A DNA stretch of 50,143 nt from an uncultured Acetobacteraceae bacterium. GTDB taxonomy: Bacteria; Pseudomonadota; Alphaproteobacteria; Acetobacterales; Acetobacteraceae. The first letter of the stretch is position 1; every line of letters starts with the position of its first letter. Position numbers and translations under genes: made by a program. The DNA is taken from NCBI GenBank assembly GCA_964244305.1, contig CAXTJW010000001.1, positions 1-50,143 on the forward strand, in the 5' to 3' direction. Below the pieces are notes generated by a model that saw nothing but the letters and a program-made list of their open reading frames with translations, was not told where the DNA came from and ran no database searches. Below, in pieces: positions 10,719 through 29,051 of the stretch.

Positions 10719-11043
10719 GCTGCGAGCCTGCCACCCTGATCGCACAGGATGCGTCCTTGCCCCAGGCGGCTCGCCTGGGCAGCCCGGCATAATATCTGCT
10801 GCGGAAACTGTCGCACTGGCAATACTTGTGTTGACAAGAGTTATGGCAGGTTTCAGTCTCCTGCATCGGCGCAAGCCAAGCCGAAGACCGGCCATCAAGC
10901 CGATCTGACTTAGGTCCCCCCTGATCGCCAACCGTGACGGGGCCGGACAGTGTTCGCCGACGGTTCAGCATCCGAGCGTTCGGGCAGGACCGCAAAAAGC
11001 ACAAGTGAAATTAAAGGTTTCCGGCAAACGGGGACCGGGGGGA

Positions 11044-12264
11044 ATGGACATGGCCACAGTTGCAGAATTGCGCCCTGCGTACGCCAAGGCCGGTCTTCTC
11101 ACGCTGGGCGCCTTCGCTCTGGCCCTGGCCGCAGCAGCGCCCGCGCGAGCGGCGGATGAGATCGTGCTCGGCGCGTCGCTGCCGCTCAGCGGGCCGCTCG
11201 CTGGGTTCGGCAGCTTCCAGCAATGGGGCTACAAGCGCGCGGTCGAGGAAACCAACAAGGCCGGCGGCATCGTCGTGAACGGCAAGGCGCTGCCGGTCCG
11301 CCTGGTTCTGCGGGACGACAAGACCGACCCGAACACCTCGGCCAGCAACATCGAGACCTTGATCTCCCGCGACGGCGCCGTCGCCGTGCTGGGGTCCTGC
11401 ACGACGCCGCTGGTGGTGGCCGGGGCGCTGGTGGCCGAGCGGCACAAGATACCGATGGTCACCGCATGCGAACCATTGCAGACCTTCCGCGGCGTCCGCT
11501 CCTGGACCTATGTCTGGGACCTGTTCTTCGACGAGCCGGACCTGGCCCATGCCCCGTTCGGCGTGCTGCAGGACCTGGCGCTGACCACCAACAGGCGCGT
11601 CGCGATCCTCCATGACAACGGCCCCGACGGCAAGGTGGTCGGCGGCCAGGTCTGGCCCGCGATGGCCAAGGAGGCCGGGCTGGAGGTGGTGCAGGTCGCC
11701 GCTTTCCCCGCCGACAACACCCAGTTCACCTCCATCATCGCCGAGGCCAAGGCCAAGGACGCCGAGATCATCCTGATCGACGTGATCACCCCCCAAGCCA
11801 TCGCCATCCGCAAGCAGATGGCCGCCGCCGGCTACACCCCGAAGTTCATCGACATCGAGCGCGGGGCCGAGCCGGCCGGGTTCGCGGCAGCACTCGGCAA
11901 GCTCGCCGACGGCGTGGTGGGCGGCGGCTATTGGGACGCGAGCTTCCCGTTCCCCGGCGCGGCCGGCCTGGCCAAGTCGTTCGAGGCCGAGACGAACCAG
12001 AGCAGCTCGCAGCACATCGCCGATAGCTACGCCGTCGCGGTGGTGATGCTGGATGCGATCCGCGCCGCCGCATCGGCCGACCCGGCCGCGATCAACGCCG
12101 CCCTGGCCAAGACGGACATCATGACGGTCGTCGGCCCCATCCGGTTCGACAGCACGCACACGGCGAAGCTGCCGATGGTGTCGGTGCAATGGCAGGGCGG
12201 CAAGACCGTGGTGATCTGGCCCGGCGACAAGGCGACAGGCAAGGTCCTGTTCCCGGTGCCATGA
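11044..12264 (+). CDS. LivK-like (HAAT family) periplasmic binding protein
   Basis: Signal peptide ending APARAA; LGASLPLSG, AGGI, DDKTDP motifs. Confidence 0.9.
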   Translation: MDMATVAELRPAYAKAGLLTLGAFALALAAAAPARAADEIVLGASLPLSGPLAGFGSFQQWGYKRAVEETNKAGGIVVNGKALPVRLVLRDDKTDPNTSASNIETLISRDGAVAVLGSCTTPLVVAGALVAERHKIPMVTACEPLQTFRGVRSWTYVWDLFFDEPDLAHAPFGVLQDLALTTNRRVAILHDNGPDGKVVGGQVWPAMAKEAGLEVVQVAAFPADNTQFTSIIAEAKAKDAEIILIDVITPQAIAIRKQMAAAGYTPKFIDIERGAEPAGFAAALGKLADGVVGGGYWDASFPFPGAAGLAKSFEAETNQSSSQHIADSYAVAVVMLDAIRAAASADPAAINAALAKTDIMTVVGPIRFDSTHTAKLPMVSVQWQGGKTVVIWPGDKATGKVLFPVP

Positions 12265-12289
12265 CGCGGCGGGTGCGGGCAGGCGCGTC

Positions 12290-13162
12290 ATGCCGGGCCT
12301 AGACTTGATCGCCAGCAGCCTGGCATCCGGCTTCTTCCTGGGCGGCATCCTGGCGCTGACGGCGCTGGGATTGTCCCTCGTGCTGGGCGTGATGGGCCTG
12401 GTGAACCTTGCGCACGGCGAGTTCCTGGTGGGCGGCGGCTATGCGGCGCTGTTCCTATTGCAATGGACCGGCATCGACCCCTTGGCGGGCCTGCTGCTGG
12501 TCGGTGCGTTCCTGGCGGCCGTCACCTATCCGGTGCAGCGCTTCCTGCTGGCGCCGCTGGCTGGGAAGGGCCTGGAGGCGCCGCTGCTGACGATGTTCGC
12601 GGTGTCGGCCATCCTGCAGAACCTGTTCGTGGCCGGGTTCAGCGCGGACACGCGCTCCATCGAGCGGGACTACGCCAACGCGCCGCTGCACCTGGGTCCG
12701 GTGACGGTGGCGCAGATCTACGTCATCGGGTTCGCCATATCCGTGGTGCTGATCGGGCTGGTTCACCTGCTGGTGGCGCACACCGCGTTCGGGCGGGACC
12801 TGCGGGCCAGTGCTGCGGACCCGCGGGCGGCGGCGGCGCTGGGGGTGAACGTGCGCCGGGTCCACGCGCTGACGTTCGCGCTGGGGGCGGCGTGCGCCGG
12901 CATGGGGGGCACGCTGATCGGCATCGCGTTCGCCTTCACGCCCAGCAGCGGGGCGACCTATCTGCTGATCGACTTCGCCATCGTGGTGATCGGCGGCCTC
13001 GGCAGCATTGCCGGCACCTTGATGGGCGGCGTGGCCATCGGAGTGCTGCAAAGCATCGGCGGCGTGCTGCTCGGCGACGGTTACCGCGACCTGTTGGCGC
13101 TGGTGGCATTCCTCGTGGTGCTGGCGGTCCGGCCGACTGGCCTGGCCGGAGCGCGCGCATGA
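12290..13162 (+). CDS. LivH-like ABC permease
   Basis: GLSLVLGVMGLVNLAHG, FGRDLRA, VIGGLGS. Confidence 0.92.
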   Translation: MPGLDLIASSLASGFFLGGILALTALGLSLVLGVMGLVNLAHGEFLVGGGYAALFLLQWTGIDPLAGLLLVGAFLAAVTYPVQRFLLAPLAGKGLEAPLLTMFAVSAILQNLFVAGFSADTRSIERDYANAPLHLGPVTVAQIYVIGFAISVVLIGLVHLLVAHTAFGRDLRASAADPRAAAALGVNVRRVHALTFALGAACAGMGGTLIGIAFAFTPSSGATYLLIDFAIVVIGGLGSIAGTLMGGVAIGVLQSIGGVLLGDGYRDLLALVAFLVVLAVRPTGLAGARA

Positions 13163-14118
13163 GGGCGGCCAGCCTGCCGGTTACACCCGCCGGGCGCCGG
13201 TTCGCATCGCTCTGGCCCGCTCTGGCCGCGGTCTCCGCGGTGCTGGCGTTGGCGGCCCCGCCCTTCATGGGCGAGTATGCGCTGCAGATCGGCTTCCGCC
13301 TGCTGATCCTGCTTGTCATCGCCGAGGCATGGAACCTGCTGGCGGGCTACACCGGGCTGGTTTCCCTGGGATCGGCCGCCTTCGTCGGCGCTGGCGGCTA
13401 CCTGGCTGTTGCCGGCATGAACCACCTGGGCCTGCCATTGGCGGCGGCGCTGGCGCTGTCCGGGCTGGGCGGAGCGGCGCTCGGCTTCGTCGTCTCCGGG
13501 GCGGTGTTCCGGATGCGCGGCCTATACTTCACCGTCGGCACCCTGGCGCTGGCGGAGGCGCTGCGGCTGTTCATGGTCAACGTGCCGACGTTCGGCGGCG
13601 CGGCCGGCATGTTCCTGGACCAGGACCCGGTGCCGGCGGGCGGGCTGTATCTGTATGCGCTGGGGCTGCTGGGTGTGACGACCGTTATCATGACGGCGGC
13701 GACGCAAACCCGCGTCTCCGTCATACTGCGCGCCGTCCGGGACGACGAGGACGCGGCGGCCGGGTTCGGCGTGCGCCCGTTCCGGGTCAAGCTGGCGGCA
13801 CTCATGCTGGCCGGGAGCATGATGGGAATGGCCGGCGGCCTGCAGGGCTACAAGCTCGGCGCGGTCGAGCCATACGGCATGTTCGGGCTGGGCTGGTCGG
13901 TGGACGCGCTGTCCATCGTGCTGATCGGCGGGCTGGGCCTGCGCCTTGGCCCGGCGGTGGGCGCGGTGTTTGTGGTGGGGTTGGGCGAGCTGCTGGCCGA
14001 CTACCCGGAGCTGCACATCGCGCTGACGGGCGTCATCCTGGTGGTGCTGATCCGCTTCGCACCCAAGGGGCTGTGCGGCCTGGCGTCCACCCTGCGGGCC
14101 CGGCGGCGCGCCGCATGA
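13159..14118 (+). CDS. LivM-like ABC permease
   Basis: WNLLAGYTGLVSLG, RMRGLYF, LRAVRDDEDAA; ATGA overlap. Confidence 0.92.
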   Translation: MRAASLPVTPAGRRFASLWPALAAVSAVLALAAPPFMGEYALQIGFRLLILLVIAEAWNLLAGYTGLVSLGSAAFVGAGGYLAVAGMNHLGLPLAAALALSGLGGAALGFVVSGAVFRMRGLYFTVGTLALAEALRLFMVNVPTFGGAAGMFLDQDPVPAGGLYLYALGLLGVTTVIMTAATQTRVSVILRAVRDDEDAAAGFGVRPFRVKLAALMLAGSMMGMAGGLQGYKLGAVEPYGMFGLGWSVDALSIVLIGGLGLRLGPAVGAVFVVGLGELLADYPELHIALTGVILVVLIRFAPKGLCGLASTLRARRRAA

Positions 14119-15668
14119 ACGCCGCCCCGTTCAAGGCGCCCCTGCCCGAGGCGCCCCTCCTCGCAGCAAAAGGCCTGGTGAAGCGTTACGGCGGCCTGGT
14201 CGCAACCGACCACTTGGACTTCTCGCTGGCGCTTGGCGAGGTCTGCGGCGTGATCGGGCCGAACGGCGCCGGGAAGTCCACCCTGGTCAGCCTGCTCGGC
14301 GGCGCGTTGCAGCCCAGCGAGGGCAGCATCCGCTTCGCCGGCCTGGACGTGACGCGGCTGCCAGCGCCGGAGCGCGCCCGCGCCGGCATCGGCCGGACCT
14401 ACCAGATCCCCCGCCCGTTCCTGGACATGAGCGTGCAGGAGAACCTGCAGGTCGCGCAGGTGGCGCTCGGCCCCACCCGGCCGCGGCGGGAGCTGCACGG
14501 GGAGCGCATGGACATCCTGCGGCAATGCGGCCTGGCCGACTGCGCCGACCTGCCCGCCCGCGGCCTGCCGCTGCTGCGCCGCAAGCGGCTGGAGGTGGCC
14601 CGCGCCCTGGCGCTCAAGCCCAAGCTGCTGCTGCTGGACGAGGTCGGGGCCGGGCTGGTGGACTCCGAGGTGACGGAGCTGATCGCGCTGATCCGCGCGG
14701 TCTCCGGACCCGAGCGCTCCATCGTCATCATCGAGCACGTGATCCGCGTCGTGAAGGAATGCTGCGCCCGGCTGGTGGTGCTGAACTTCGGCAAGCGCAT
14801 CGCCGAGGGCCGCACAGCCGACGTGCTCGCCGACGACACCGTCGCCGCGGTGTATCTCGGCACCGCACATGCCGCCGCCGCGCAGGGCATCGCCGCGCCG
14901 GCACAGGCCGCAGCACCCCTGGACCGCCTCGTATCCGCCGCTGCGCCGCGTCCCGGCCCCTTGCTGGAGCTGTGTGGCGTCAGCGCCGGATACGGCCAGG
15001 CGCGGGTGCTGCACAGCCTGGACCTGCAGGTGCGGCCCGGCGAGGTGGTGGCCGTGCTGGGCACCAACGGCGCCGGCAAGACCACGCTGGCCGAGACCAT
15101 CGCCGGCAGCGTGCGCCCGACCGCCGGGCGGCTGGTGTTCGACGGGGAGGACATTACCGCCCTGCCGCCGTATCTGCGCTCCGGCCGCGGCATCGCGCAC
15201 TGCATGGAGGGGAGGCGCATTTTCGCCCGGCTGTCCGTGGAGGAGAACCTGGCCATCGCCGCCCGCGGCTTGCCGGCAGCGGACAGGGCGGCACGGCTGG
15301 CGCAGGCGTATGCGCTGTTCCCGGACCTGCAGGAGCGGCGCGCGGCGGCCGGTACCGCGATGTCCGGCGGGCAGCAGCAGATGCTGGCCATCGCCCGCGC
15401 GCTGATGTCCCGCCCGCGCCTGGTGATCTTCGACGAGATCAGCCTGGGCCTGGCGCCGGTAGTGATGGACCGGCTGTATGCCGCGCTCGCCGCGCTTCGG
15501 TCGGCCGGGCTGACGATGCTGCTGATCGAGCAGGACGTGGACCGCGCGCTGGCGCTGGCCGACCAGGTGCACGTGCTGGAGCGCGGCGCCTTCGCGCTGT
15601 CAGGCGCGGCGGCGGACGTGCGCGCCGACCCACGGCTGCGGCACCTGTACATCGGCGAGCCGGAATGA
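14115..15668 (+). CDS. Fused LivG-LivF ABC ATPase (two nucleotide-binding domains)
   Basis: Two Walker A motifs (GPNGAGKST, GTNGAGKTT), LLLLDE and VIFDE, MSGGQQQ; Ala/Pro linker. Confidence 0.9.
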   Translation: MNAAPFKAPLPEAPLLAAKGLVKRYGGLVATDHLDFSLALGEVCGVIGPNGAGKSTLVSLLGGALQPSEGSIRFAGLDVTRLPAPERARAGIGRTYQIPRPFLDMSVQENLQVAQVALGPTRPRRELHGERMDILRQCGLADCADLPARGLPLLRRKRLEVARALALKPKLLLLDEVGAGLVDSEVTELIALIRAVSGPERSIVIIEHVIRVVKECCARLVVLNFGKRIAEGRTADVLADDTVAAVYLGTAHAAAAQGIAAPAQAAAPLDRLVSAAAPRPGPLLELCGVSAGYGQARVLHSLDLQVRPGEVVAVLGTNGAGKTTLAETIAGSVRPTAGRLVFDGEDITALPPYLRSGRGIAHCMEGRRIFARLSVEENLAIAARGLPAADRAARLAQAYALFPDLQERRAAAGTAMSGGQQQMLAIARALMSRPRLVIFDEISLGLAPVVMDRLYAALAALRSAGLTMLLIEQDVDRALALADQVHVLERGAFALSGAAADVRADPRLRHLYIGEPE

Positions 15669-15836
15669 CGTCCCCCTCGCCGGACATGCCTTGCAAAGCC
15701 AGCAGGCGACGCGGCCCAGCCCAGGAAGGGAGTGCAGAACCCTAGCAACTCGAATGCACCAGGGCCGGCACGGTCTCGGCGAATGTTTCCAATAATTAAT
15801 AATCAGCCATGACGGCATGGCAACAGAGAGAGAACG

Positions 15837-16760
15837 ATGATGAAGCGCTGCCTTAAGTTGCTGGGATGTCTTGCCGCATTCGGCGTTGTGTCCACAGCCA
15901 AGTCTTATGCGACGGAGGGTGGAAACAACCACTATCCACTGGGTGTCAACACGGTGCTCCCGGCGCTGCTGCCGCCGCCGAATGGCACCGAGTATTATAA
16001 TTACTTGCAATACTACAACTCGGGGGTTCTGGCTGGGCCGAATGGGAACAAGGTGGCGCCGGGCTTTCATGCGAACATCACCGCGGAGGTCGCCCGGGTC
16101 GTGCACTCCTGGCCAGTCCAGCTCGGTCCGTTCGGGATTTCGTCGGGCATCGTGCAGCCGGTCGTCAACGCCAGTATCCTCCTGCCGCGCTCGACCGGGT
16201 CCCAGGACCGGCTGGCGTTCGGCGACACCGTGCTGCAGCCGCTGTTCCTGACCTATAGCAACCCTGCCCACACGTTCTTCGCCTACTTCGGCCCGAGCAT
16301 CTATGTCCCGGACGGAGCGTACGACGTCCACCATGCCATCAATATCGGCCTGAACCACTGGGGATTCGCTCCGGATGCGGCGTTGACTTGGTTTCCAACC
16401 CCGCGCATCGCATTTTCATTGGAAACCGTGATCGAGTTCAACGCGCAGAACGACGCGACGAAATACAAAAGCGGCAATGCTTTCAGCTTCGAGTATGGGC
16501 TGGAGTATCAGCCGTTCGAGAACTACAAGCGGTTCCATGTCGGCATCAATGGCTATGGCTACCAGCAATTCACCGACGACACGGTGAACGGGCAGATATT
16601 CCGCAACGGCAACCGCGGGCGCACCTATGCCATCGGGCCGCAGTTTCGTTACGATTGGAAGCTTGGCGGCATCGCCATCAAGTATCAGCGGGAGTTCGCT
16701 GTCGAGAACCGGACCTCCGGGGACCGCTTCTGGATTCAGTTCGCAGTGCCGATCTTCTGA
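15837..16760 (+). CDS. Outer-membrane channel, SphA/Phenol_MetA_deg (COG4313) family
   Basis: Signal peptide then ATEGGxxHYPLG; PDGAYD..NIGLNHW; AIGPQ; C-terminal Phe. Confidence 0.85.
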   Translation: MMKRCLKLLGCLAAFGVVSTAKSYATEGGNNHYPLGVNTVLPALLPPPNGTEYYNYLQYYNSGVLAGPNGNKVAPGFHANITAEVARVVHSWPVQLGPFGISSGIVQPVVNASILLPRSTGSQDRLAFGDTVLQPLFLTYSNPAHTFFAYFGPSIYVPDGAYDVHHAINIGLNHWGFAPDAALTWFPTPRIAFSLETVIEFNAQNDATKYKSGNAFSFEYGLEYQPFENYKRFHVGINGYGYQQFTDDTVNGQIFRNGNRGRTYAIGPQFRYDWKLGGIAIKYQREFAVENRTSGDRFWIQFAVPIF

Positions 16761-16797: not shown

Positions 16798-17751
16798 TCA
16801 GGCGTCGCGGGCGATCCGCGTCCGCAGAGTGCCGACGCCGCCGACCTCGATCCGCACTTCGTCGCCGGGCTGCAGGAAGACGCCTTGGGCCATGCCGACG
16901 CCGGCCGGGGTGCCGGTGGCGATCACGTCGCCGGGCAGCAGGGTGACGCGGGTGCTGAGATGCGCGACCTGCTCGGCCATGCCGAAGATCAGGTTGCGGC
17001 TGTTCGAGTCCTGTTTCAGCTGGCCGTTGACCCACAGGCGCACGGACAGGTCGTGCAGGTCGGCGATGCCCTCCAGCGGCACGATCCAGGGTCCCATGGG
17101 CTTGGCGCCCTCGAAGCACTTCTGGCTCATCCAGTCCCAGTGGAACGGGGACCCCAGCGGCACGTCCGGCCGCGCCACCCAGTCGCGCGCCGACAGGTCG
17201 TTGACGATGGTCAGGCCCGCGACATGCGCCATCGCCTGATCCGCCGTCACGTTGCGCGCCCGGCGGCCCATGACGAGGGCGACCTCCGCCTCCCAGTCCA
17301 GCTTATTGGAATAGGCGGGGATGCCGACTGCGGCGCCGGGTCCGACGATGGAGTGGGCGGGCGTGGCGATGAAGTGCCAGGGCTTGTCGCCGTCCTTGCG
17401 CGGGCCATCGTCGGGCAGGCCGAGCACGCGCGCCATCTCCGCCACATGGTCGGTGTAGTTGGCGCCGGCACAGAACAGCGCGCGCGGATACAGGATCGGG
17501 GCCAGCAGCTGCATTTGGTCCAACGGGCCGACCGGGGCGCCGTCGAACGACGCCGCCGCCAGGCCGGAGCGCACTGTGTCCCACTCCTCCAAAGCCGCCA
17601 GCATCGTGGCCGGAGCGTCGCCGCCCAGCACGGCCTGCATGTCGTACAACATCCACGTGTCGCCGTAACCGGGCCGGGCCACGCCGGGGCGCGGCTGGCC
17701 CGTGTCCGGGGCGGCGTAGGTGACGAGGCGCAGGTGCCCGATCGGCGTCAC
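16798..17751 (-). CDS. Fumarylacetoacetate hydrolase (FAH)-family protein
   Basis: CAGANYTDH, LDWEAE, NDLSARD, QKCF, TGTPAGVG; GTG start overlaps the upstream TGA. Confidence 0.92.
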   Translation of the reverse strand: MTPIGHLRLVTYAAPDTGQPRPGVARPGYGDTWMLYDMQAVLGGDAPATMLAALEEWDTVRSGLAAASFDGAPVGPLDQMQLLAPILYPRALFCAGANYTDHVAEMARVLGLPDDGPRKDGDKPWHFIATPAHSIVGPGAAVGIPAYSNKLDWEAEVALVMGRRARNVTADQAMAHVAGLTIVNDLSARDWVARPDVPLGSPFHWDWMSQKCFEGAKPMGPWIVPLEGIADLHDLSVRLWVNGQLKQDSNSRNLIFGMAEQVAHLSTRVTLLPGDVIATGTPAGVGMAQGVFLQPGDEVRIEVGGVGTLRTRIARDA

Positions 17752-18194
17752 GCAGCCGACCCGAACACCCCATCGAACAGCCGGCCCGGGCGGTGGCAGA
17801 TCTCCCACCAGTTGCTGTCCATATCGCGCAGCAGGAAGCCGGTCTGGCTATCCTCGCGCGTCACGTCCCGCACTTCCTGCATCCCGTACTCGTCCTTGAG
17901 GCGGAGTGCGGCGGCGTGCGCCTCGTCCACTTCCGCGGCGGTCGCCATGTCCAGGCACCAGCGCACCGTGGGCGGCAAGGGCAGCATGGTCTCCCCCGTC
18001 ATCACGGCCGCGACCATCCAGCCGCCGCCGCAGCGCAGCCAGATCGCCATCTCGCCCCGCTGCACCGTCTCAAGACCGAGGAATTCGTTGTAGAAGCGGC
18101 GCGCGGCCACGAGGTCGCGGGTTTCGAGCGTGCCGTGCGACAGCGACAGCGTCAGGCTGCCGCTGGCCGGGACGGGCTGGGTCATGTCGTTCAT
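17748..18194 (-). CDS. VOC (glyoxalase/bleomycin-resistance) fold protein, subunit B
   Basis: RBS GGAGGA; LSHGTLE..DL..ARRFY..FLGLE and F..RDMDSNWWE VOC motifs. Confidence 0.85.
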   Translation of the reverse strand: MNDMTQPVPASGSLTLSLSHGTLETRDLVAARRFYNEFLGLETVQRGEMAIWLRCGGGWMVAAVMTGETMLPLPPTVRWCLDMATAAEVDEAHAAALRLKDEYGMQEVRDVTREDSQTGFLLRDMDSNWWEICHRPGRLFDGVFGSAA

Positions 18195-18273
18195 CGTGTG
18201 TCCTCCATGGCGCCCCGGCCTTCCCGGCCGGGGCTTGTGCGGATCAGGCGCTCTAGCAGAAAAAAGGCTGGTG

Positions 18274-18813
18274 CTAGTTGAAGCCGCCGTCGCCGCGGGC
18301 GAACACCTCGTCCGTCGCTTCGCCGGATGGGCGGCACTCGACTTCCCACCAATTGGAGTCGAAGTCCTGCAGGTAGAACGAGTAGGTGCCGTGCTGCATC
18401 CGCGGCTTGCGGACGGCGCGCAGGCCCAAGCTGTCCTTGTTGGCCGCGGCATAGGCGTGCACCCGGTCCACCTCGGCCGAGGAGGCGACGTCGATGCCCC
18501 AGTGCTTGAACAGGTTGGTGGTGACGGTGCCCTCGACCTGCTGCACGTCCATCACCCAGTAAGGGCCGCCGTTGCGATGGCGGAGGCGTGCCGGGTCGGT
18601 GTCGCGCACCATCATGCGCCCGCCCTCCATGCGCTTGCATTCCAGGCCCAGGAAGGTTTCGTAGAACGCCTGCGCGCGGTCGAGGTCGGCGGTCAGGATG
18701 GTGCCGCGCGACAAGATCAGCGGCTTCAGCACCGGGTTGGCGCTGCTGCGGGGGATGTCGGTGGGCAGGCTGGATGCTTGCGGGGCCGGCGGGGCGTCGA
18801 GAGTGGCGGACAT
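18274..18813 (-). CDS. VOC fold protein, subunit A (paralogue of 17748..18194)
   Basis: RBS AAGGAG; DLDRAQAFYETFLGLE, KHWGIDV, QHGTYSFYLQDFDSNWWE. Confidence 0.85.
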   Translation of the reverse strand: MSATLDAPPAPQASSLPTDIPRSSANPVLKPLILSRGTILTADLDRAQAFYETFLGLECKRMEGGRMMVRDTDPARLRHRNGGPYWVMDVQQVEGTVTTNLFKHWGIDVASSAEVDRVHAYAAANKDSLGLRAVRKPRMQHGTYSFYLQDFDSNWWEVECRPSGEATDEVFARGDGGFN

Positions 18814-18835
18814 GGCGTGCTCCTTGGTTGAGGGG

Positions 18836-19819
18836 TCAGCGATCCAGGATCAGCTGCTCGCCCGGCATCGCGCGGGAGATGCAGATGTGGATGGTGTCCT
18901 GGGCGGCCTTCTGGTCGTCCTCCAGGATATCGTCGCGGTGGTCGGCCTTGCCGCCGAGCAGCACGGTCTCGCAGTTGCCGCACCAGCCTTCCCGGCACAC
19001 GTACGGCGTCTTGATTCCGGCGCCGAGCAGCACCTCCAGGATGGACTTGTCGGCCGGCACCTGCAGGGTCCGGCCGCTGCGGGCGAGCACGACCTCGAAC
19101 GGCTGGTCGCCGCCAACGTCCACAACAGCGGGCGCCTCGGGCGGGGAAGCGAACAGCTCCACGTGCACCGTACCAGCTGGCCAATGCGCGGTTGCAGCCT
19201 TCGCGGCCTCGATCAGGCCGCGCGGACCGCATACATAGGCATGCGCGCCCACCGGCCGGTCCCGCAGCGCGGCTGCCAGGTCGAGGCTGCGGCCGGCGTC
19301 GCCCTCGTCATGGTGCAGCAGCAGGCGCGGGCCGTGCGCGTCCAGCAGCTCCGCCCGATAGGCCGTGTCGGCGGCGGTGCGCGTACAATAGATCACGCGG
19401 AACGGGGTGCCGATGGCCTGCAAGCGGTGGATCATCGACCGGATCGGCGTGATGCCGACGCCGCCGGCCACCAGGACGTGCTCGGCCGCCTCCTCTCGCA
19501 AAGGAAAGGCGTTGCGCGGCCCGGCGATCTGCAGGGTGTCGCCAACCTGCACGCTGCCATGCAGCCAGCCGGATCCGCGGCCATCGGGCTCCCGCAATAC
19601 CGCGATCACGTAGCGGTCTATGTCCCGCGGGTCGTTGGCCAGAGAGTAGGACCGGATCACGCCCTCGCCGACGGCGACCTCGATATGCGCCCCGGCCTCG
19701 AACGGCGGCAGCGCGGCTCCATCGCCCACCAGTTCGAACTCGCGGATGCGGGGGGTTTGGTCCTGGATGGCAGCGACGCGCACGCCGAAATGCGGCAGCA
19801 TGGGATCGAAGTGTTGCAT
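18836..19819 (-). CDS. PDR/VanB-family oxygenase reductase (FMN, NAD(P)H, C-terminal [2Fe-2S])
   Basis: RSYSL, GRGS, AGGVGITP, YVCGP, CREGWCGNC...ICISRA. Confidence 0.94.
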   Translation of the reverse strand: MQHFDPMLPHFGVRVAAIQDQTPRIREFELVGDGAALPPFEAGAHIEVAVGEGVIRSYSLANDPRDIDRYVIAVLREPDGRGSGWLHGSVQVGDTLQIAGPRNAFPLREEAAEHVLVAGGVGITPIRSMIHRLQAIGTPFRVIYCTRTAADTAYRAELLDAHGPRLLLHHDEGDAGRSLDLAAALRDRPVGAHAYVCGPRGLIEAAKAATAHWPAGTVHVELFASPPEAPAVVDVGGDQPFEVVLARSGRTLQVPADKSILEVLLGAGIKTPYVCREGWCGNCETVLLGGKADHRDDILEDDQKAAQDTIHICISRAMPGEQLILDR

Positions 19820-19888: not shown

Positions 19889-19959
19889 GTTTGAGCGCAA
19901 TATGTTTTTCGACCCCGGCCGGGGTATGCCGGGTCGGGCCGGCGGCAGAAGGGGATGGG

Positions 19960-20622
19960 ATGCGTAAGATGGAGGCCGACAAGCAGACGGTGGGCCTGCG
20001 CGAGCGCGGCAAGCGCGACCGCCTGCACCGCCTGCACCAGGCTGCCGCGGAGGTGTTCCGCACCCGCGGCTACGACGCCGCCACCACGCGGGACATCGCC
20101 CAGTTGGCGGAGGTGTCGGTGGGAACCTTGTTCGTATATGCCAGGGACAAGCGGGACCTGCTGTTCCTGGTCATCAACGACGATCTTGACGCGGTGCTTG
20201 CGCGCGCGCTGGCCGCCGCCGCCCGGCCTGGGACGCCGCTTGACCAACTGGCGGAGCTGCTCGGACCCATTTACGTCTATTTCGCGCTGGAGCCGGAGCT
20301 GGCGCGCCCGGCGATGCGGGAGGTCGTGCACTATGACCGGCCGCGGGACGAGGGCGCCGGCGAGCAGGCACAGCGTTACATGCGGCGGATGGACGCATGG
20401 CAGGATGCGATAGCGACGGTGCTGGAGCAGGCCGGCAGCGCGGGACGGCTTCGGCTGGACGCTCCCGCAGCCCTGCTCGCGCGGGTCCTGTTCGACATCC
20501 ACCTCGTCGAGGTGCGGCGCTGGATGAATGCCGGCCTACCGGACCCGGCCGCGGGCCAAGCAATGTTGCGGCAGATGTTTGCCGTCGTCCTCGAGAGCCG
20601 GCTTGCAACCCAGCCCGGCTGA
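19960..20622 (+). CDS. TetR/AcrR-family regulator
   Basis: GLRERGK, RGYDAATTRDIAQLAEVSVGTLFVYARDK HTH. Confidence 0.92.
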   Translation: MRKMEADKQTVGLRERGKRDRLHRLHQAAAEVFRTRGYDAATTRDIAQLAEVSVGTLFVYARDKRDLLFLVINDDLDAVLARALAAAARPGTPLDQLAELLGPIYVYFALEPELARPAMREVVHYDRPRDEGAGEQAQRYMRRMDAWQDAIATVLEQAGSAGRLRLDAPAALLARVLFDIHLVEVRRWMNAGLPDPAAGQAMLRQMFAVVLESRLATQPG

Positions 20623-20884: not shown

Positions 20885-22453
20885 CTATGCGTCCACGCCC
20901 ACGGCCAGGTCCATCGTTCGAACCGCCGCATCGCCATGTAGGGCCGCCTGCAGGCGTTCCAGCAACGCCGCAAGCGCCTCGCCGTCGCCGGCGGTCCCGT
21001 ATAGGTACCAGTCCGGGCGCACGACTGCGGCGATGCACGAATGGCTGGCGAACCACGCCGTATAGACCCCATCGATGTCCATGAGCGGGGATGGCTTCTC
21101 CGGTGTGCCGAAGATCGCGATTTTGCCGCCGATCGCCGCCCAGGCATCCCGATCGGTGTCCGCAACGCGGTCCAGCACCCCGGCACCGGACGCGACGATG
21201 CACCAGCCGGCGCCGACAACGTCGTCGAAGCGGCCCGTCCGCGCGCCGAGGCGCACCTGCCCCTGCGGAAAGAACGCGCCGCTATCGGCGACCATGCGTC
21301 CCGTCAGGCCCGGCAGCCGCAGCTTATCCGGCTTCTGGTGCGCGCTGCGCTGCGCGATGAGCCGCCTGTCCCGTTCGCGCGCCGCCGCCGGGTCGCGCAG
21401 GGTCTGTACCCGTCCCAGCTCGATGGCCTTCTCGGTGATGAACCGGACGTGCGGCTCGCGTTCCGGCTGGTAGGTGTCCAGCAGCGCCGCGTCGGCCCGC
21501 CCGGTCAGCACGAGATCGAGCTTCCACGCCAAGTTGTGGCTGTCGCGGATGCCCGAGCACATGCCCTGGCCCAGGAACGGCGGCATCTCGTGCGCGGCGT
21601 CGCCGGCCAGCAGCACGCGCCCATGCCGCCACTGCTCGGCGATGCGCGAACGGAACATGTAGTTGACCACGCGGATCAGCTCCGCATCGTCTGCGGTCAG
21701 GTATGGACCAACGCGCGCCCAAACCCGGGCCGGTTCCGTCGCCTGCTCGACGGTTTCGCCGGGGTTCAGCATGAACGAGAAGCGGTGATGGTCGGGGCCG
21801 ATACGGACGATGGATGTCGGCTGCGCCGGGTCGCACACCTGCCGGAACATCGGCAGCCCCGGCACGGCGCGGAGCATCCGGAAGTCGCAGACCAGCCAGT
21901 TCTCCTGGAACCCGTAGTCTTCGACGGACGGGCAGAACGTCCGGCGCGTGAAGCCGCCGCCGCCGTCCGCCCCGACCGCGTAGCGTGCCCGCACGGTCGC
22001 CGGCTCGCCGTCGGGTCCGGTGCCTTGGATCGTAACCACGCTTTGATCCTGGCTGATCCGGGAGACCGTGAAGCCTTGCCGGACTTCGACGGCCGGCAGC
22101 GCCTTGATATGCTGGTCGAGCACCGCTTCCACATGCGGCTGGAACATCATGTACAGCGCTGCCCAGCCGCCGGGTCCGGGGTCCGCATACTCAAGCTCGA
22201 CGAGGGTCTCGCCGTCGGCATTGATCCAGTCGTAGTCGCGCTGGACCACGGCCCCGAGGCCGACCTCCCCGGCGAGGCCGAGCTTCTGGAACGTCCGCAT
22301 GATCTCGTCGTCGAAGCATGCGGCACGCGGGAGGTTATAAAGGCCGGTGTAACGTTCCAGCACCACGACACTGTGGCCTTGCTGGCCCAGCAGCGCCGCG
22401 AGGGCCATGCCGGTCGGTCCATAGCCGATCACCGCCACATCGAAATCGATCAT
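20885..22453 (-). CDS. MhpA/TsdB-like FAD-dependent phenol hydroxylase (candidate resorcinol 4-hydroxylase)
   Basis: RBS AGGAGG; GYGPTG, GADG, GDAAHEMPPFLGQGMCSGIRD, C-terminal VVRPD. Confidence 0.88.
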   Translation of the reverse strand: MIDFDVAVIGYGPTGMALAALLGQQGHSVVVLERYTGLYNLPRAACFDDEIMRTFQKLGLAGEVGLGAVVQRDYDWINADGETLVELEYADPGPGGWAALYMMFQPHVEAVLDQHIKALPAVEVRQGFTVSRISQDQSVVTIQGTGPDGEPATVRARYAVGADGGGGFTRRTFCPSVEDYGFQENWLVCDFRMLRAVPGLPMFRQVCDPAQPTSIVRIGPDHHRFSFMLNPGETVEQATEPARVWARVGPYLTADDAELIRVVNYMFRSRIAEQWRHGRVLLAGDAAHEMPPFLGQGMCSGIRDSHNLAWKLDLVLTGRADAALLDTYQPEREPHVRFITEKAIELGRVQTLRDPAAARERDRRLIAQRSAHQKPDKLRLPGLTGRMVADSGAFFPQGQVRLGARTGRFDDVVGAGWCIVASGAGVLDRVADTDRDAWAAIGGKIAIFGTPEKPSPLMDIDGVYTAWFASHSCIAAVVRPDWYLYGTAGDGEALAALLERLQAALHGDAAVRTMDLAVGVDA

Positions 22454-22487
22454 CGCTGCCTCCTGTCGCAAGCCGGGCGTTCTGCCC

Positions 22488-23495
22488 TTAACCGGATCGA
22501 CCATGCCCCGTCTCGACGGCCTGGGCGAGTGCAAGTGATGCAGCGTCGGAATGCATCGCGTGCATCTGGCCCGCCTGCCTGGCCGTCCGGTGCATTGCCG
22601 CCTGGCCGATCTCCACGAGGACGCGCCGCAGCCAGACATGGCCGGCGCTCTCGTGCAGGCGGCGGTTCCAGACCAGGCGGAACGCGATGGCCGGCAGCTT
22701 GAGCGGCGGCTCGGCGATCACCAGCGGCGCGATGTCCGCGAACATGCGCGCCGCCCCTTCCGACACGACGGCGATCATGTCGGAGCGGAGCAGCGCCGCC
22801 ACCCCCGCCAGGCCATTTGGCAGCCGGAACGCGATCCGCCGCGCCAGTCCCGCCGCGGCAAGGGCCTGGTCCGCAACGTCTTCCGCCTCGTCGTTCATCG
22901 AGACCAGCAAATGCGGGGTGTCGAGGAATCCCGCCAGCGTCATCGCCCCACCGGCCAGCGGGTGGCCGGCCCGCATGAGGCAGACGTGCCGGTCGGCCAG
23001 CAAGTGGCAGGTGACGAAGCGCCCGGGCAGGCTGCGGACGCTGCCGATGGCGATGTCCGCGCGGCCCTTGTCGATGTCGTCGACGATCCCCGCCGCGGGG
23101 CCGGACCGCACGGTCACGTCGATGCCCGGCGCCTCCCGCCGGATGCGGTCGACCATGTCGGCGACGATCACGATCGTGCCATAGGTTTCCACGACGATGG
23201 TAAAGGCCCGCCGGGCCGTCGCGGGATCGAAGCGGTCGGGCGCGAGCGTCGCTTGTATCTCCTCCAGCGCGAGGCGGATCGGGCCGGCCAGGGCCAGCGC
23301 GCGGGGCGTAGGCTCCATTCCTGTGGCGGTGCGGACCAGCAGCTCATCGCCCAGCAGTCCGCGCAGCCGGGCCAGGGCGTGGCTGGTCGCGGATTGGCTG
23401 AGGCCGATCCGCGCCCCGGCCCGGCGCACTGAACGCTCCTCCGTCAGGGCGTTCAGCACGACAAGCAGGTTGAGGTCGATGCCGCGCAGGTTCAT
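22488..23495 (-). CDS. LysR-family regulator (NodD/DntR-like) with C-terminal extension
   Basis: MNLRGIDLNLL, SQSATSHALARLR, FDPATARR. Confidence 0.92.
   Translation of the reverse strand: MNLRGIDLNLLVVLNALTEERSVRRAGARIGLSQSATSHALARLRGLLGDELLVRTATGMEPTPRALALAGPIRLALEEIQATLAPDRFDPATARRAFTIVVETYGTIVIVADMVDRIRREAPGIDVTVRSGPAAGIVDDIDKGRADIAIGSVRSLPGRFVTCHLLADRHVCLMRAGHPLAGGAMTLAGFLDTPHLLVSMNDEAEDVADQALAAAGLARRIAFRLPNGLAGVAALLRSDMIAVVSEGAARMFADIAPLVIAEPPLKLPAIAFRLVWNRRLHESAGHVWLRRVLVEIGQAAMHRTARQAGQMHAMHSDAASLALAQAVETGHGRSG
22551..22565. promoter_or_regulatory. LysR-type T-N11-A box upstream of the hydroxylase, inside the lysR 3' end
   Basis: ATGCA-TCGCG-TGCAT dyad; TTGCAC follows on the minus strand. 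Confidence 0.55.
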
Positions 23496-24252: not shown

Positions 24253-25260
24253 ATGCAGGGCAAGGTAATCGTCGAGGAGCATTTCGCGCTCCCCGAGACG
24301 GTGCAGGACAGCGCGGGCTTCGTGCCCGAGACGGACTGGATCGAGCTGAAGGCCCGGCTGCTCGACATGCAGGACCGCCGCCTGCGCGAGATGGACCAGA
24401 ATGGCATCGAGATGATGCTGCCCTCGCTAAACGCGCCCGCGGTGCAGGCCATCCCCGACCGCAAGCTGGCCATCGAGATCGCGCGCCGGGCGAACGACTT
24501 CCTGGCCGGCGAGGTGCAGCGCCGCCCCGACCGGTTCCAGGGCCTGGCCGCCCTGCCGATGCAGGACCCGGACGCAGCAACGCGCGAACTGACCCGCTGC
24601 GTGCAGGATCTCGGCTTCCGCGGGGCGCTGGTCAACGGCTTCAGTCAGGTGGACGATCCCGCCAACGCCACCTACTACGACCTGCCGCAGTATCGCCCGT
24701 TCTGGGCCGAGGCGGAGCGCCTGGGCGTGCCGTTCTACCTGCACCCCCGCAACCCGCTGCCGCAGCACGCCCAGATCTACGACGGCCATCCCTGGCTGCT
24801 CGGCCCCACTTGGGCGTTCGGGCAGGAGACGGCGGTCCATGCGCTGCGGCTCATGGCCTCCGGGCTGTTCGACGCGCACCCGCGGCTGCGGATCATCCTG
24901 GGGCACCTGGGCGAGGGCATCCCCTATTCCCTATGGCGCATCGACAACCGCAACGCCTGGGTCACGGCGCCGAAGGGCTATCCGGCGAAGCGTCCGCTTG
25001 GCGAATACTTCCGCGAGAACTTCTACCTCACGACCTCGGGCAACTTCCGCTCGCAGACCTTGATCGACGCGATGCTGGAGATTGGCGCCGACCGTATCAT
25101 GTTCTCGGCCGACTGGCCGTTCGAGAACATCGACCATGCCGCCCGCTGGTTCGACGCCTGCACGATTTCCGAAGCGGACCGGCGCAAGATCGGCCGCACC
25201 AATGCATGGGACTTGTTCGGCCTGGGCCAGGCCCAGCGGCAGGCCCTGGCCGCGGAGTAA
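24253..25260 (+). CDS. graF: Gamma-resorcylate (2,6-dihydroxybenzoate) decarboxylase, amidohydrolase fold
   Basis: MQGKVxxEEHF, SLNAPAVQ, FYLHPRNP, LLGPTWAF, LGHLGE, ADWPFE closely match the Rhizobium enzyme (from memory). Confidence 0.93.
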   Translation: MQGKVIVEEHFALPETVQDSAGFVPETDWIELKARLLDMQDRRLREMDQNGIEMMLPSLNAPAVQAIPDRKLAIEIARRANDFLAGEVQRRPDRFQGLAALPMQDPDAATRELTRCVQDLGFRGALVNGFSQVDDPANATYYDLPQYRPFWAEAERLGVPFYLHPRNPLPQHAQIYDGHPWLLGPTWAFGQETAVHALRLMASGLFDAHPRLRIILGHLGEGIPYSLWRIDNRNAWVTAPKGYPAKRPLGEYFRENFYLTTSGNFRSQTLIDAMLEIGADRIMFSADWPFENIDHAARWFDACTISEADRRKIGRTNAWDLFGLGQAQRQALAAE

Positions 25261-25365: not shown

Positions 25366-26727
25366 ATGCCGACGGAGCTGGATGTCCATGAGGAGCTGGC
25401 CGAGGCGCGGGTCGGCCCGGTCCACCGCACGCTCGGCGTGCTGGTCGCGCTGATGACGCTGTTCGACGGCTACGACACCTTCAACCCGGCCTATGTCATC
25501 CACTACGTCGCCAAGCCCTGGGGCCTGTCGGCGGGGCAAGCTGGCTTCCTGGTCAGCAGCGGGCTGATCGGGTTCCTGATCGGCGCGGCCGGGCAGGGGA
25601 TGGTGTCGGACCGGCTGGGGCGGCGCGGCACGCTGCTGGCGGGCTTGTGGATCGTCAACGTGTTCACCGTGCTGACGCCGGTGCTGGGCACGGGCTTCAC
25701 CCAGTTCTGCCTGCTGCGCATATTGACGGGCATCGGGCTCGGCACGCTGCTGCCGTTGGCCGCGACCTACATCAACGAGCTGGCGCCGCGCCGGGTCAGC
25801 AATGCGTTTTCGCTGTGGGGCGTGGCGCTGGGCTGGTCGGTGGGTGGCACGCTGGCCGGGCTGGTCGGCGTGTTCCTGACGCCGCTCTACGGCTGGCAGG
25901 TGCTCTACTGGGTCGGCGCGCTGTCCCTGCCGCTGACGCTGCTGATGCACATGGCGCTCCCGGAAAGCCCGAAGTTCCTGGCCCTCGCCGGACGGCACGA
26001 CGACCTGCGCCGCCTGCTGGCCCGGCTGCGGCCGGAGCGGGCCGCAGCCTATGCCGAAGCGGGCCTGCGCGCCCGGCCGGAGCCGCGGGTCGGCAACCCC
26101 CTCGCCGCCCTGCTTATGCCGCGCTACCGCCGCACGTCGCTGACCATCTGGACTACATCGTTCCTCAGCCTGTTCTGCATCTTCGGCCTGACGGGCTGGA
26201 TACCGACGGTGATGATGAACCGCGGCGAGACCTTCGCGGCGTCGTTCGGCTTCGGCGCGCTGATGCAGGTCATGTCGTTCGTCGGCGGGCTGGTGCTGGC
26301 CATGCTCGCGGACCGGCGCCCGGCGGCGTCCACCCGGCTGCTGTCGGCGTGGTGGGGCCTGGGTGGGCTGTCGGTGATCGCGCTGATCTTCCTGGGCGGG
26401 CACGGCGTCAACTTTGCTTGCGTTGCGGCGGCCGGGTTCCTCATCATCGGGGCGCAGCACGTCCTGAACAACTTCACGGCCGCCAGCTACGACACCGGCA
26501 TCCGGGCGTCCGGCGTCGGGATGGAGCTCGGGGTCGGCCGGGTCGGCGCAATCCTGGGGCCGGTCGTCGCCGGGCTGCTGCAAGGCGCGACGGGCGGGCC
26601 GGAAGCGATGTTCTGGACCATCGGCGGCGCCGGGCTGCTGGCGGCGGCCTGCGTCGCCTCGCTCGGCCCCACCCAGCCGTTGGAAGCGCCTCCCGTGGCG
26701 ATCCTGGGCGGCGGGGCGGTTGGGTGA
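25366..26727 (+). CDS. MFS aromatic acid:H+ symporter (AAHS family)
   Basis: FDGYD, SDRLGRR, ELAPRR, LPESP, GRVGAILGP. Confidence 0.9.
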   Translation: MPTELDVHEELAEARVGPVHRTLGVLVALMTLFDGYDTFNPAYVIHYVAKPWGLSAGQAGFLVSSGLIGFLIGAAGQGMVSDRLGRRGTLLAGLWIVNVFTVLTPVLGTGFTQFCLLRILTGIGLGTLLPLAATYINELAPRRVSNAFSLWGVALGWSVGGTLAGLVGVFLTPLYGWQVLYWVGALSLPLTLLMHMALPESPKFLALAGRHDDLRRLLARLRPERAAAYAEAGLRARPEPRVGNPLAALLMPRYRRTSLTIWTTSFLSLFCIFGLTGWIPTVMMNRGETFAASFGFGALMQVMSFVGGLVLAMLADRRPAASTRLLSAWWGLGGLSVIALIFLGGHGVNFACVAAAGFLIIGAQHVLNNFTAASYDTGIRASGVGMELGVGRVGAILGPVVAGLLQGATGGPEAMFWTIGGAGLLAAACVASLGPTQPLEAPPVAILGGGAVG

Positions 26728-27779
26728 TGCGGCCATTCACCTACGAGGCGCCGGCACAGCGTGTCGTTTTCGGCCGCGGCACGCTGGCGCTGGTCGGCGA
26801 CGAGGTCCGGCGGCTGGGGCATCGCCGTGCGTTGGTGCTGTCCACCCCGCAACAGGAAACGGACGCTCGGCAGCTCGGATCGGCCCTGGGCAGCCTGGCA
26901 TTCGGTGTGTTCGCCGGGGCGGTGATGCACACGCCGGTCGACGTGACGGAGCAGGCGATGCATCACGCAGCCGGCGCGGACTGCATCGTGTCGCTCGGAG
27001 GCGGCAGCACGACCGGGTTGGGCAAGGCGATCGCGTTGCGCACCGGGCTGGACCAGGTCGTCGTGCCGACAACCTACGCCGGGTCGGAGGCGACCCCCAT
27101 CCTAGGCGAGTCCGACAAAGGCAGAAAAACCACGCAGCGCAACCGGGCCGTGCTGCCGGAGGTCGTCGTCTATGACATCGACCTCACGCTGACCCTGCCG
27201 GTCGCCTTGTCGGCCGCATCCGGCCTGAACGCGATCGCGCACGCGATGGAGGCGCTGTATGCGCCGGACGCCAACCCGGTCACGTCCGGCCTCGCCGCGC
27301 AGGGCATCGCGGCGCTGGCCCGCGCGCTGCCGGCCATCATGGCCGACGCCTCCGACGTCGAGGCTCGCGGCGATGCGTTGTTCGGGGCATGGGCGTGCGG
27401 GACGTGCCTGGGCACCGTCGGTATGGGGCTGCACCACAAGCTGTGCCACGTGCTGGGCGGCACGTTCGACCTGCCACACGCAGAGACGCACGCGCTCGTG
27501 CTGCCCTACTCCGCCGCCTACAATGCCGACGCCGCGCCAGACGCGATGCGGCAGATGGCAGCGGCGCTCGGCGTCCCGGACGCGGCGACGGGGCTGTTCG
27601 AGCTCGCCCGGCGGCTGCGGCTTCCGACAGGGTTGCACGCGTTGGGCATGCCGGCCGAAGGTATCGACCAGGCGGCCAACCTTGCCGTTGCCGCACCGTA
27701 CCCCAATCCGGCGCCTATCGACCGCATTGCCATCCGGGCACTGCTGCAGGCAGCCTTCGACGGCACCGCACCTCGGTAA
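26727..27779 (+). CDS. Maleylacetate reductase (GraC/TsdD-like)
   Basis: RVVFG, AVMHTP, GGGSTTGLGK, PTTYAGSE, NAIAHA, LHHKLCHVLGG, HAETH. Confidence 0.94.
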   Translation: MRPFTYEAPAQRVVFGRGTLALVGDEVRRLGHRRALVLSTPQQETDARQLGSALGSLAFGVFAGAVMHTPVDVTEQAMHHAAGADCIVSLGGGSTTGLGKAIALRTGLDQVVVPTTYAGSEATPILGESDKGRKTTQRNRAVLPEVVVYDIDLTLTLPVALSAASGLNAIAHAMEALYAPDANPVTSGLAAQGIAALARALPAIMADASDVEARGDALFGAWACGTCLGTVGMGLHHKLCHVLGGTFDLPHAETHALVLPYSAAYNADAAPDAMRQMAAALGVPDAATGLFELARRLRLPTGLHALGMPAEGIDQAANLAVAAPYPNPAPIDRIAIRALLQAAFDGTAPR

Positions 27780-27791
27780 AGGAAGCCCTTC

Positions 27792-28694
27792 ATGGACCAT
27801 ATTTCCACGCGCGACACGGACGAGCACACCATCACCGACGCCGTGCTCGCGCGGCTCGCCGATACGCCCGACTTGCGCTTCAAGCAGCTCGTGCAGTCGC
27901 TGGTCCGCCACGTCCACGCCTTCGTGCGCGAGGCCGAGCCGACGTTCGCAGAATGGCAGCAGGCCGTCGCCTTCCTGACCCGCACCGGCCAGACCTGCAC
28001 CGACACGCGGCAGGAGTTCATCCTGCTGTCCGACGTTCTGGGCGTGTCCATGCTGGTGGACGCGATCAACCACCGCATGCCGGACGGGGCGACGGAGACG
28101 ACGGTGCTCGGCCCGTTCCACGTCGCAGACGTGCCGTTCTCCCCGAATGGCGCCGACATCGGGGCCGGGCGGGCGGGAGAGCGGCTGTATGTCGAGGGGT
28201 CGGTGTCATCCGCCAACGGCGCGCCATTGCCCGGCGCCGTGCTGGAAGTGTGGCAGTCCGACGACGACGGCTTCTACGACGTGCAGCGGCCGGAGCTGGA
28301 CGGCCCTTCGCTGCGCACCCGGCTGCGGGCCGACGATGCGGGCCGGTTTCATTTCTGGACCATCATGCCGACCGCCTACCCGATCCCAGACGACGGCCCG
28401 GTCGGTGAGCTGTTGAAGGCCACCAACCGCCACCCGTGGCGGCCGGCGCACCTGCATTTCATGATCTCGGCCGCTGGGCACGAGCAGCTGGTGACGCACC
28501 TCTTCGTCGCCGGGGGCGACTACCTCGACAGCGATGCGGTGTTCGGGGTCAAGGAGTCGCTGATCCAGGCGTTTACGCAGCACGGGCCGGGGCAGGCGCC
28601 GGATGGCACCGAGGTCGAAGGGCCTTGGCGCATGCTGTCCTACGGCTTCGGTCTGAAGTCCGTAGGAACGCCCGCGCTGGCGATGCAGGACTGA
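27792..28694 (+). CDS. Hydroxyquinol 1,2-dioxygenase (intradiol; GraB/TsdC-like)
   Basis: RQEFILLSDVLG, TVLGPF, GFYDVQ, YPIP, RPAHLH, DAVFGVK. Confidence 0.93.
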   Translation: MDHISTRDTDEHTITDAVLARLADTPDLRFKQLVQSLVRHVHAFVREAEPTFAEWQQAVAFLTRTGQTCTDTRQEFILLSDVLGVSMLVDAINHRMPDGATETTVLGPFHVADVPFSPNGADIGAGRAGERLYVEGSVSSANGAPLPGAVLEVWQSDDDGFYDVQRPELDGPSLRTRLRADDAGRFHFWTIMPTAYPIPDDGPVGELLKATNRHPWRPAHLHFMISAAGHEQLVTHLFVAGGDYLDSDAVFGVKESLIQAFTQHGPGQAPDGTEVEGPWRMLSYGFGLKSVGTPALAMQD

Positions 28695-28721
28695 CCCTTT
28701 AACACACCACGGGAGGCGACC

Positions 28722-29051
28722 TTGGCCGTCACGCTCATCAACACGTTCATCGTCCGCGAAGGCCAGGAGGAGGAGTTCCTCCGCAACTGGCAGATGTCGG
28801 CCGACCATTTCTCGAAGACGCCGGGCTTCATCGAGACGAAGCTGCACCGCAACACCGGCGTCGGCAACGGCACCTTCGCGTTCATCAACATCGCCAAGTG
28901 GACGAGCGCCGAGGCGTGGCGCAGCACGCATGAGGCCTACAAGCCGACCGAATACAAGCTGGACGGCGTGAAGGGCCACCCCGCGATCTTCGAACCGATC
29001 GTGACCATGGTCTATCAGGGCGAACAGCCGCAACTGCCAGGGGCCGACTAG
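28722..29051 (+). CDS. ABM (antibiotic biosynthesis monooxygenase)-domain protein
   Basis: TTG after GGAGG; LINTF..EEF, PGFIETKLHR, FINIAKW. Confidence 0.8.
   Translation: MAVTLINTFIVREGQEEEFLRNWQMSADHFSKTPGFIETKLHRNTGVGNGTFAFINIAKWTSAEAWRSTHEAYKPTEYKLDGVKGHPAIFEPIVTMVYQGEQPQLPGAD

Follow-up and report, generated by a model that had tools for sequence, protein, structure and literature searches.

An uncultured Acetobacteraceae bacterium (GenBank assembly GCA_964244305.1) encodes, within a 50,143-nucleotide stretch of contig CAXTJW010000001.1 that we refer to as the window, two adjacent VOC-superfamily proteins, here called subunits A and B, directly downstream of a PDR/VanB-type FMN/NAD(P)H/[2Fe-2S] reductase. 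This one-site VOC pair is real and conserved, and complex modeling predicts a domain-swapped A/B heterodimer whose single iron site would consist of B-His20, A-His104, and A-Glu157. As to function, we tentatively favor a ring-cleaving dioxygenase whose linked reductase would supply the substrate by reducing a hydroxy(naphtho)quinone and whose acylpyruvate product would be hydrolyzed by an FAH-family enzyme. Ring cleavage in general is probable; a naphthoquinone as the specific substrate is the more doubtful part of the proposal.

The VOC pair and its predicted metal site

Both genes lie on the minus strand, that of subunit A (179 amino acids) at 18274..18813 and that of subunit B (148 amino acids) at 17748..18194. 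Membership in the VOC superfamily, whose proteins are built of paired beta-alpha-beta-beta-beta modules, rests on Pfam PF00903, which scores above its cut-off for B and weakly for A, with models and fold searches in agreement. An earlier note on this DNA had described the two as paralogues with complementary changes at their metal-ligand positions; the open reading frames and all the residues it named are in place, and the subunits align with 39% identity over 140 columns (E 2e-23). Subunit A has Arg36, His104, His141, and Glu157, together with Tyr147; subunit B has His20, Met60, Arg78, and Glu131, and lacks a His where A has its QHG motif. Arg36 is invariant in 29/29 A homologues, as are His20 and Arg78 in 29/29 B homologues. 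The 2-His-1-carboxylate triad of type I extradiol enzymes is present only across A and B together.

The ligand pattern was compared in 55 pair loci, many of them kin, that comprise the window, genome G015, and the pairs within the best 79 of 533 confirmed metagenome loci. The triad of the first His from B and the second His and Glu from A is intact in all 55, and the second site is His/His/Glu in none, reading Arg/Arg/Glu in 17, Ser/Arg/Glu in another 17, and Cys/His/Glu in 12. As a rule, then, an intact site is combined with a degenerate one, and the His-to-Arg swap is the trait of a subfamily, because Arg occupies both positions in only 17 of the 55 pairs. The dead Arg/Arg/Glu site of the earlier note is thus found in the window and its subfamily but does not extend to the wider family, where the 12 Cys/His/Glu sites (L108, L114, L117, L123, L128, L129, L132, L136, L138, L156, L157, and L159) could bind a second metal.

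When A and B were modeled as a complex with alignments, the score was 0.92, against 0.00 for the best control; this mark is reached by 116/157 solved complexes and by 2/215 mismatched pairs, although likeness may account for the pass, since solved structures include many VOC dimers. At least 87% of contacts recur between model runs, in which the partner pLDDT is at least 88, A105 is in contact with B20/21, and A31-34 pair with B80-83. In this swapped register, where strand 1 of one chain lies against module 2 of the other, B-His20 is directed to A-His104 and A-Glu157, and A-Arg36 to B-Arg78, as the earlier note had anticipated for a domain-swapped dimer. Its argument that the heterodimer would complete exactly one site is supported by the model, by the existence of fused homologues, and by the intact first and incomplete second sites of the pair loci. 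Subunit A also has an Arg-rich insert of about 10 residues (about residues 71-81; window 18571-18603), conserved in A-type subunits and lying within the modeled interface, which might either cap the degenerate site or dock the acidic ferredoxin domain. Separately, the possibility that a single gene was split by a frameshift or by assembly was rejected: each of the two open reading frames begins at a start of its own, and 53 metagenome loci as well as G015 show the same separation into two genes.

Fold comparisons were made with A alone and with a fused homologue (P0074; model pLDDT 85). Subunit A matches FosX-type chains and unassigned glyoxalases. The fused protein matches maize GLO1 best (Z 22.3, root mean square deviation 3.1, 251 aligned residues), followed by PcpA (Z 21.4, deviation 3.3, 258 aligned residues, 11-12% identity); GLO1, PcpA, 1ZSW, GLOD4, and 3OAJ together span Z 19.6-22.3, single-chain VOCs score below Z 9, and classic extradiol enzymes superpose domain by domain only (TM about 0.28). 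Sequence searches of the PDB with A, B, and two profiles gave weak VOC matches, none close, with 4HUZ and 3OAJ absent from the matches listed; at E 1e-5, no NCBIfam model was matched by either subunit or by the single-gene form, and the ESM Atlas gave generic VOC clusters only. FosA/FosX, glyoxalase I, and GLO1 share with the pair a domain-swapped fold with ligands from two chains (for A/B, in the model), but A and B score below those families' cut-offs, the second sphere differs, and no reductase takes part in those systems; a role in fosfomycin resistance or as a glyoxalase was rejected on these scores.

The linked reductases

The PDR reductase (18836..19819, minus strand, 327 amino acids; identified by Pfam, the 2PIA match, and a tree) is intact, as had been claimed. 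It has its FAD, NAD, and Fer2 domains and Cys275, Cys280, Cys283, and Cys313, and its match to phthalate dioxygenase reductase (2PIA) spans the full length (E 3e-73). Its description as an orphan is valid for the window only: although no Rieske or P450 match was found on the contig, 8 Rieske and 4 P450 matches lie on other contigs of the genome, which is 69% complete and has a single copy each of A and B. Class IA Rieske oxygenases, such as phthalate dioxygenase and VanAB, use the same type of reductase; A/B, unlike these, has no Rieske subunit, and the VOC-linked PDRs form a clade of their own.

The linkage of reductase and pair, without a Rieske partner, recurs widely, in line with the earlier note. 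An adjacent PDR gene is present in 36 of the 42 pair loci whose upstream sequence extends for 700 bp or more (20/26 identity groups at 90%, 7/12 at 70%, and 4/7 at 55%), the PDR-A-B trio occurs in unrelated gene contexts, and a Rieske motif or gene was found in 1/55 pair loci, many of which are short. The 40 VOC-linked PDRs of alignable length all fall into one clade (support 0.97). Of 29 control PDRs, two join them, and each of the two comes from a genome where a single-gene member of the VOC family stands unlinked; a VOC-family member lies within 1.5 kb of none of the 29 controls, and a Rieske motif lies at 10. Members of the VOC-linked PDR clade stand alone at L183 (genome G318) and L184 (G164), far from the single-gene VOC of the same genome, and are possible partners in trans.

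The single-gene form, carried for example by Cupriavidus necator N-1, holds all ligands (His, His, His, Glu) in one chain. In 67 of 80 loci, these being the best 80 of 581 GTDB loci and mostly from Burkholderiales, the gene immediately upstream encodes a different [2Fe-2S] reductase, which has its [2Fe-2S] domain at the N terminus, together with FAD/NAD domains. Several observations argue against obligate coupling. No reductase is linked to 13/14 metagenome single genes or to 6/6 class-sample single genes with enough flank; certain genomes have neither reductase; and a crude scan detected no reductase motif within 11 kb of the four Rieske genes in G015. A PDR-clade partner encoded elsewhere in the genome was rejected as the general explanation for unlinked single genes: none of five further genomes with such genes has a PDR, and in two of the five, which are complete and hold a distant member, the queries used found neither type of reductase. 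One reductase-less member cluster has the quinone reductase WrbA 4 kb away; as a general substitute WrbA was rejected, there being no match in any other locus searched.

Candidate reactions

In a weak local alignment, A-His141, A-Tyr147, and A-Glu157 correspond to H248, Y257, and E267 of homoprotocatechuate dioxygenase (HPCD), with a Tyr-Glu spacing of 10 in both. The Tyr147 position is conserved in 55/55 A subunits and in 71/71 reductase-linked single genes, and the His141 position in 44/55 A subunits. H200 of HPCD is the acid/base His; at the equivalent column, as set by module symmetry and an alignment with 3VB0, 70/71 reductase-linked single genes have His, so that by their sequences these genes carry the full extradiol residue set. 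Type I extradiol enzymes (HPCD, XylE, BphC) with their XylT ferredoxins resemble the family in the His/His/Glu triad, the second-sphere His and Tyr, and an iron-sulfur gene directly upstream. In A/B, by contrast, two small chains share the site, no H200-type His is present, the partner is a full flavoprotein, and neither subunit matches an NCBIfam model at E 1e-5. The small dimeric VOC extradiol enzyme L-DOPA 2,3-dioxygenase (LmbB1/SsDDO; 6ON3 match) is also comparable; it differs from A/B in being a homodimer (modeled, in the account of PMC12311729) that is biosynthetic, has no reductase, and shares 14% identity.

The closest functional parallel may be PcpA and PcpD of Sphingobium chlorophenolicum, a 2,6-dichlorohydroquinone 1,2-dioxygenase and a tetrachlorobenzoquinone reductase. 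A hydroquinone dioxygenase of the PcpA/MhqO group, PcpA shows the same pairing of VOC modules as the fused homologue, in the manner of GLO1 monomers, and among its ligands and second-sphere residues the first His (His11) is supplied by one module and His227, Tyr266, and Glu276 by another (PMC3204407). PcpD, from the same pathway, is described as a quinone reductase that is PDR-like and modeled on PDR (PMC2635678, PMC3318906). Differences are that PcpA is one four-module chain, 11% identical, in place of two genes; that pcpA and pcpD are given as nonadjacent (PMC3318906); and that the pathway has no FAH step and a xenobiotic substrate. We conclude that A/B would work most like PcpA plus PcpD or like a small extradiol enzyme, while belonging, by sequence and curated score, to neither. 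No characterized member of the family was found in protein names, structures, or the open-access literature, subscription journals being outside the scope.

Likeness to extradiol enzymes and to PcpA is the ground on which we infer ring cleavage, and the following sequence of steps is tentatively the best account. With its FMN and [2Fe-2S] centres, the PDR would pass electrons from NAD(P)H to a 2-hydroxy-1,4-(naphtho)quinone, after the precedent of PcpD, giving an air-sensitive 1,2,4-triol. The triol would bind Fe(II), presumably the metal of the site, and, aided by A-His141 and A-Tyr147, be cleaved by O2 next to the diol. The FAH protein would then hydrolyze the resulting 2,4-dioxo acid, for example a hydroxybenzoyl-pyruvate, to pyruvate and an ortho-hydroxybenzoate, of the kind handled by neighboring pathways; by deduction, the products would be salicylate from lawsone and 2,6- or 2,3-dihydroxybenzoate from 2- or 3-hydroxyjuglone. 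A route of juglone breakdown to 2,3-dihydroxybenzoate is known. In the window, the 2,6- or 2,3-dihydroxybenzoate would be removed by the adjoining cluster of a gamma-resorcylate (2,6-dihydroxybenzoate) decarboxylase (24253..25260, plus strand; 2DVT match, E 2e-167), a gene that is observed there and also co-occurs with the family elsewhere, and that likely takes the module's product. For lawsone, a comparable series of reduction to 1,2,4-trihydroxynaphthalene, ring fission, and release of salicylate has been proposed in Pseudomonas taiwanensis LH-3 and P. putida L2/J1 (PMC5533781); that account describes the pathway without gene names, and its tie to the A/B family is a likeness of steps.

Gene neighborhoods agree in part. 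An FAH gene is present in 54/80 single-gene loci, and the FAH protein of the window is about 50% identical to those beside the single-gene form. Genes for gamma-resorcylate decarboxylase, a CmtC/CmtD-like dioxygenase or decarboxylase, or salicylate/anthranilate-type Rieske enzymes occur in 19/80 single-gene loci (14/50 long ones), a count that rises to 25/80 when what we take to be phthalate-type genes are included; the assignment to 2,3-dihydroxybenzoate meta-cleavage is presumed from annotation names. Members with no reductase would be expected if other enzymes can carry out the reduction.

Several points weigh against reductase-supplied ring cleavage. FAH directly follows the pair in only 10 of the 35 pair loci with enough downstream sequence, and many PDR-A-B cassettes are flanked by housekeeping genes with a transporter only. 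The co-occurrence in 19 of 80 single-gene loci is a raw count without background among loci that are kin, and 61 of the 80 have no ortho-substituted-benzoate pathway within 8 kb. At the H200-equivalent column, B has Met60 in the window and His in 0/55 loci. Quinones are normally reduced by flavin-only enzymes, the WrbA case is limited to one locus, and the recruitment of two unrelated [2Fe-2S] reductases to one family suggests delivery of electrons to the metal. Reduction of benzoquinones is itself termed uncommon in PMC3318906.

Were the quinone proposal true, the family would supply genes to consider for how bacteria degrade hydroxy-naphthoquinones (lawsone, juglone derivatives, and fungal melanin shunt products). 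This pathway, which is known from its metabolites, could then be tested with three small proteins, and the family may represent an uncharacterized way for soil bacteria to use plant and fungal naphthoquinones.

The reading of the earlier note, which we consider possible but less likely, is that A/B is a reductase-dependent monooxygenase or demethylase. As the oxygenase of such a two-component system (a hydroxylase or demethylase), A/B would receive two electrons per turnover from the PDR at its 2-His-1-Glu iron, for example in the ortho-hydroxylation of benzoate or salicylate to dihydroxybenzoates used next door. In that case the family would found a new oxygenase class with two components and non-heme iron, in which an FMN/[2Fe-2S] reductase directly feeds a VOC dimer at each turnover without a Rieske centre, heme, or co-substrate. 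Such a class would have recruited two unrelated reductases and would exist as two-site homodimers, one-site heterodimers, and fusions. The PDRs beside 36/42 pairs and their single clade (40/40, with 2/29 controls), the second reductase type at 67/80 single genes, the rarity of Rieske motifs (1/55), the stand-alone three-gene cassettes, and the missing H200-equivalent His of B all fit this scheme. It leaves the FAH gene unexplained, even where a full lower pathway exists, and must accommodate the common reductase-less single genes (13/14 and 6/6), the two complete genomes with neither reductase type by the queries used, and the finding that, of 7 pair lineages at 55% identity, no more than 4 carry the PDR. 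Monooxygenase or demethylase function is not established in view of the extradiol second sphere, the PcpA-like fold, and the usual FAH gene after the single-gene form, nor is dependence on the reductase, given members without a linked or genomic reductase and the role of the PDR-type PcpD as a quinone reductase.

Less probable again is that A/B cleaves a catechol or hydroquinone made by neighboring flavin monooxygenases, with the reductase acting as a self-sufficient, XylT-like repair protein for iron that becomes oxidized during turnover. Such a role would account for one-electron [2Fe-2S] donors, for their upstream position, and for their optional presence. The known reactivators of extradiol enzymes are small ferredoxins, a point against it, and a second cleavage of the same ring would be redundant, because the window already has an intradiol dioxygenase and CmtC-type clusters have their own extradiol enzyme. 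In its favor, reactivation of extradiol enzymes by ferredoxins is reported as established and as related to PcpD (PMC3318906), and small extradiol enzymes are described as readily inactivated (PMC12311729).

That A/B is no oxygenase at all (a lyase, isomerase, hydrolase, or quinone-binding protein), the PDR acting alone or serving a Rieske or P450 enzyme elsewhere, would suit the FosX and glyoxalase matches of single chains, the GLO1 match of the fused form, and the four Rieske genes of G015, but is improbable given the conserved His141 and Tyr147, the tie of the PDR clade to this family across many gene contexts, and the absence of VOC-family members beside all 29 control PDRs.

Neighboring genes and other forms of the family

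The genes of the operon follow one another as PDR, A, B, FAH on the minus strand, and each of the first three open reading frames is preceded by a purine-rich ribosome-binding site; the FAH gene (16798..17751, minus strand; Pfam-type domain match), which like A-Tyr147 goes unmentioned in the earlier note, has a GTG start that shares GTGA with the stop of B. A candidate 9-bp GC hairpin (window 18212-18234, minus strand) lies in the 79-bp spacer between A and B, directly before the ribosome-binding site of B, and a promoter and terminator scan returned 0 sites. A TetR regulator gene, assigned by domain match, is divergent (19891..20622, plus strand) and adjoins the cassette in close relatives too. 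Converging on the cassette from the other side are an ABC transporter and a MetA-type outer-membrane channel (11005..16760, plus strand), a block found downstream of the cassette in G015 as well.

Beyond the TetR gene lie an MhpA-family FAD monooxygenase (20885..22639, minus strand; family match), which we take to be a resorcinol hydroxylase, and, past the decarboxylase, a plus-strand group (25366..29051) of an MFS transporter, an Fe-ADH-family reductase (presumably a maleylacetate reductase), an intradiol dioxygenase (presumably of the hydroxyquinol type), and an ABM-domain protein. A truncated MFS gene and a transposase-like open reading frame, so labeled from the start of its sequence only, mark the edge of the catabolic block (window 29078-30391), and an EthD-domain gene follows (window 31379-31768). 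The genes for gentisate 1,2-dioxygenase, MarR, and 3-hydroxybenzoate 6-monooxygenase (window 7459-10502) form a second, ordinary aromatic pathway adjoining the cluster.

Homologue searches yielded 38 proteins with A and 33 with B, of A-like, B-like, and single-gene types, and a profile search gave 794 representatives at 50% identity, with both A-B and B-A fusions among the 150 listed; the single-gene or fused versions that the earlier note proposed to look for thus both exist, the former with all ligands. The single-gene profile matched 2,640 clusters at 90% identity, and the 120 of these matches listed bear no specific names. In a phylum sample, at least one other genome of 400 has a member, with few candidates scored per genome. 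A FastTree phylogeny of 230 domains (out of 373, after gappy rows were dropped and the set dereplicated at 80%) unites the B-types in one clade (0.99, n=76) and the A-types in another (0.97, n=53). Certain fused domains fall outside both, and the asymmetry may therefore have arisen more than once. On either of the first two readings of function, the series from two-site VOC homodimer to one-site heterodimer to fusions offers a model for the origin of PcpA- and GLO1-type monomers.

Some loci depart from these forms. Two diverged all-ligand copies occur at L021, L027, L047, L053, L057, L060, L063, and L111, several with one FAH gene per copy, and possibly represent either a stage before heterodimer formation or enzymes for two substrates. 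A 166-amino-acid hybrid (P0004, on 2 contigs) joins the body of A to the C terminus of B at their common NWWE motif, the result of either a genuine deletion that fused the two paralogues or a collapsed assembly. At L095:6873-9056, a close A/B pair lacks a PDR and precedes the gene for an HsaA-like flavin monooxygenase, an MhpA-like gene also being in the vicinity, and in G318 a single gene lies near an NahE/PhdJ-like aldolase (a single case). On plasmid pPABY2 of Salipiger abyssi (L181; NZ_CP015090.1), one run of genes encodes a reductase, a quinol monooxygenase, a VOC protein, a dienelactone hydrolase, a xanthine-dehydrogenase-family hydroxylase, and an FAH protein; the position of the quinol monooxygenase gene between reductase and VOC is a single case, and the run suggests a heterocyclic substrate for certain members.

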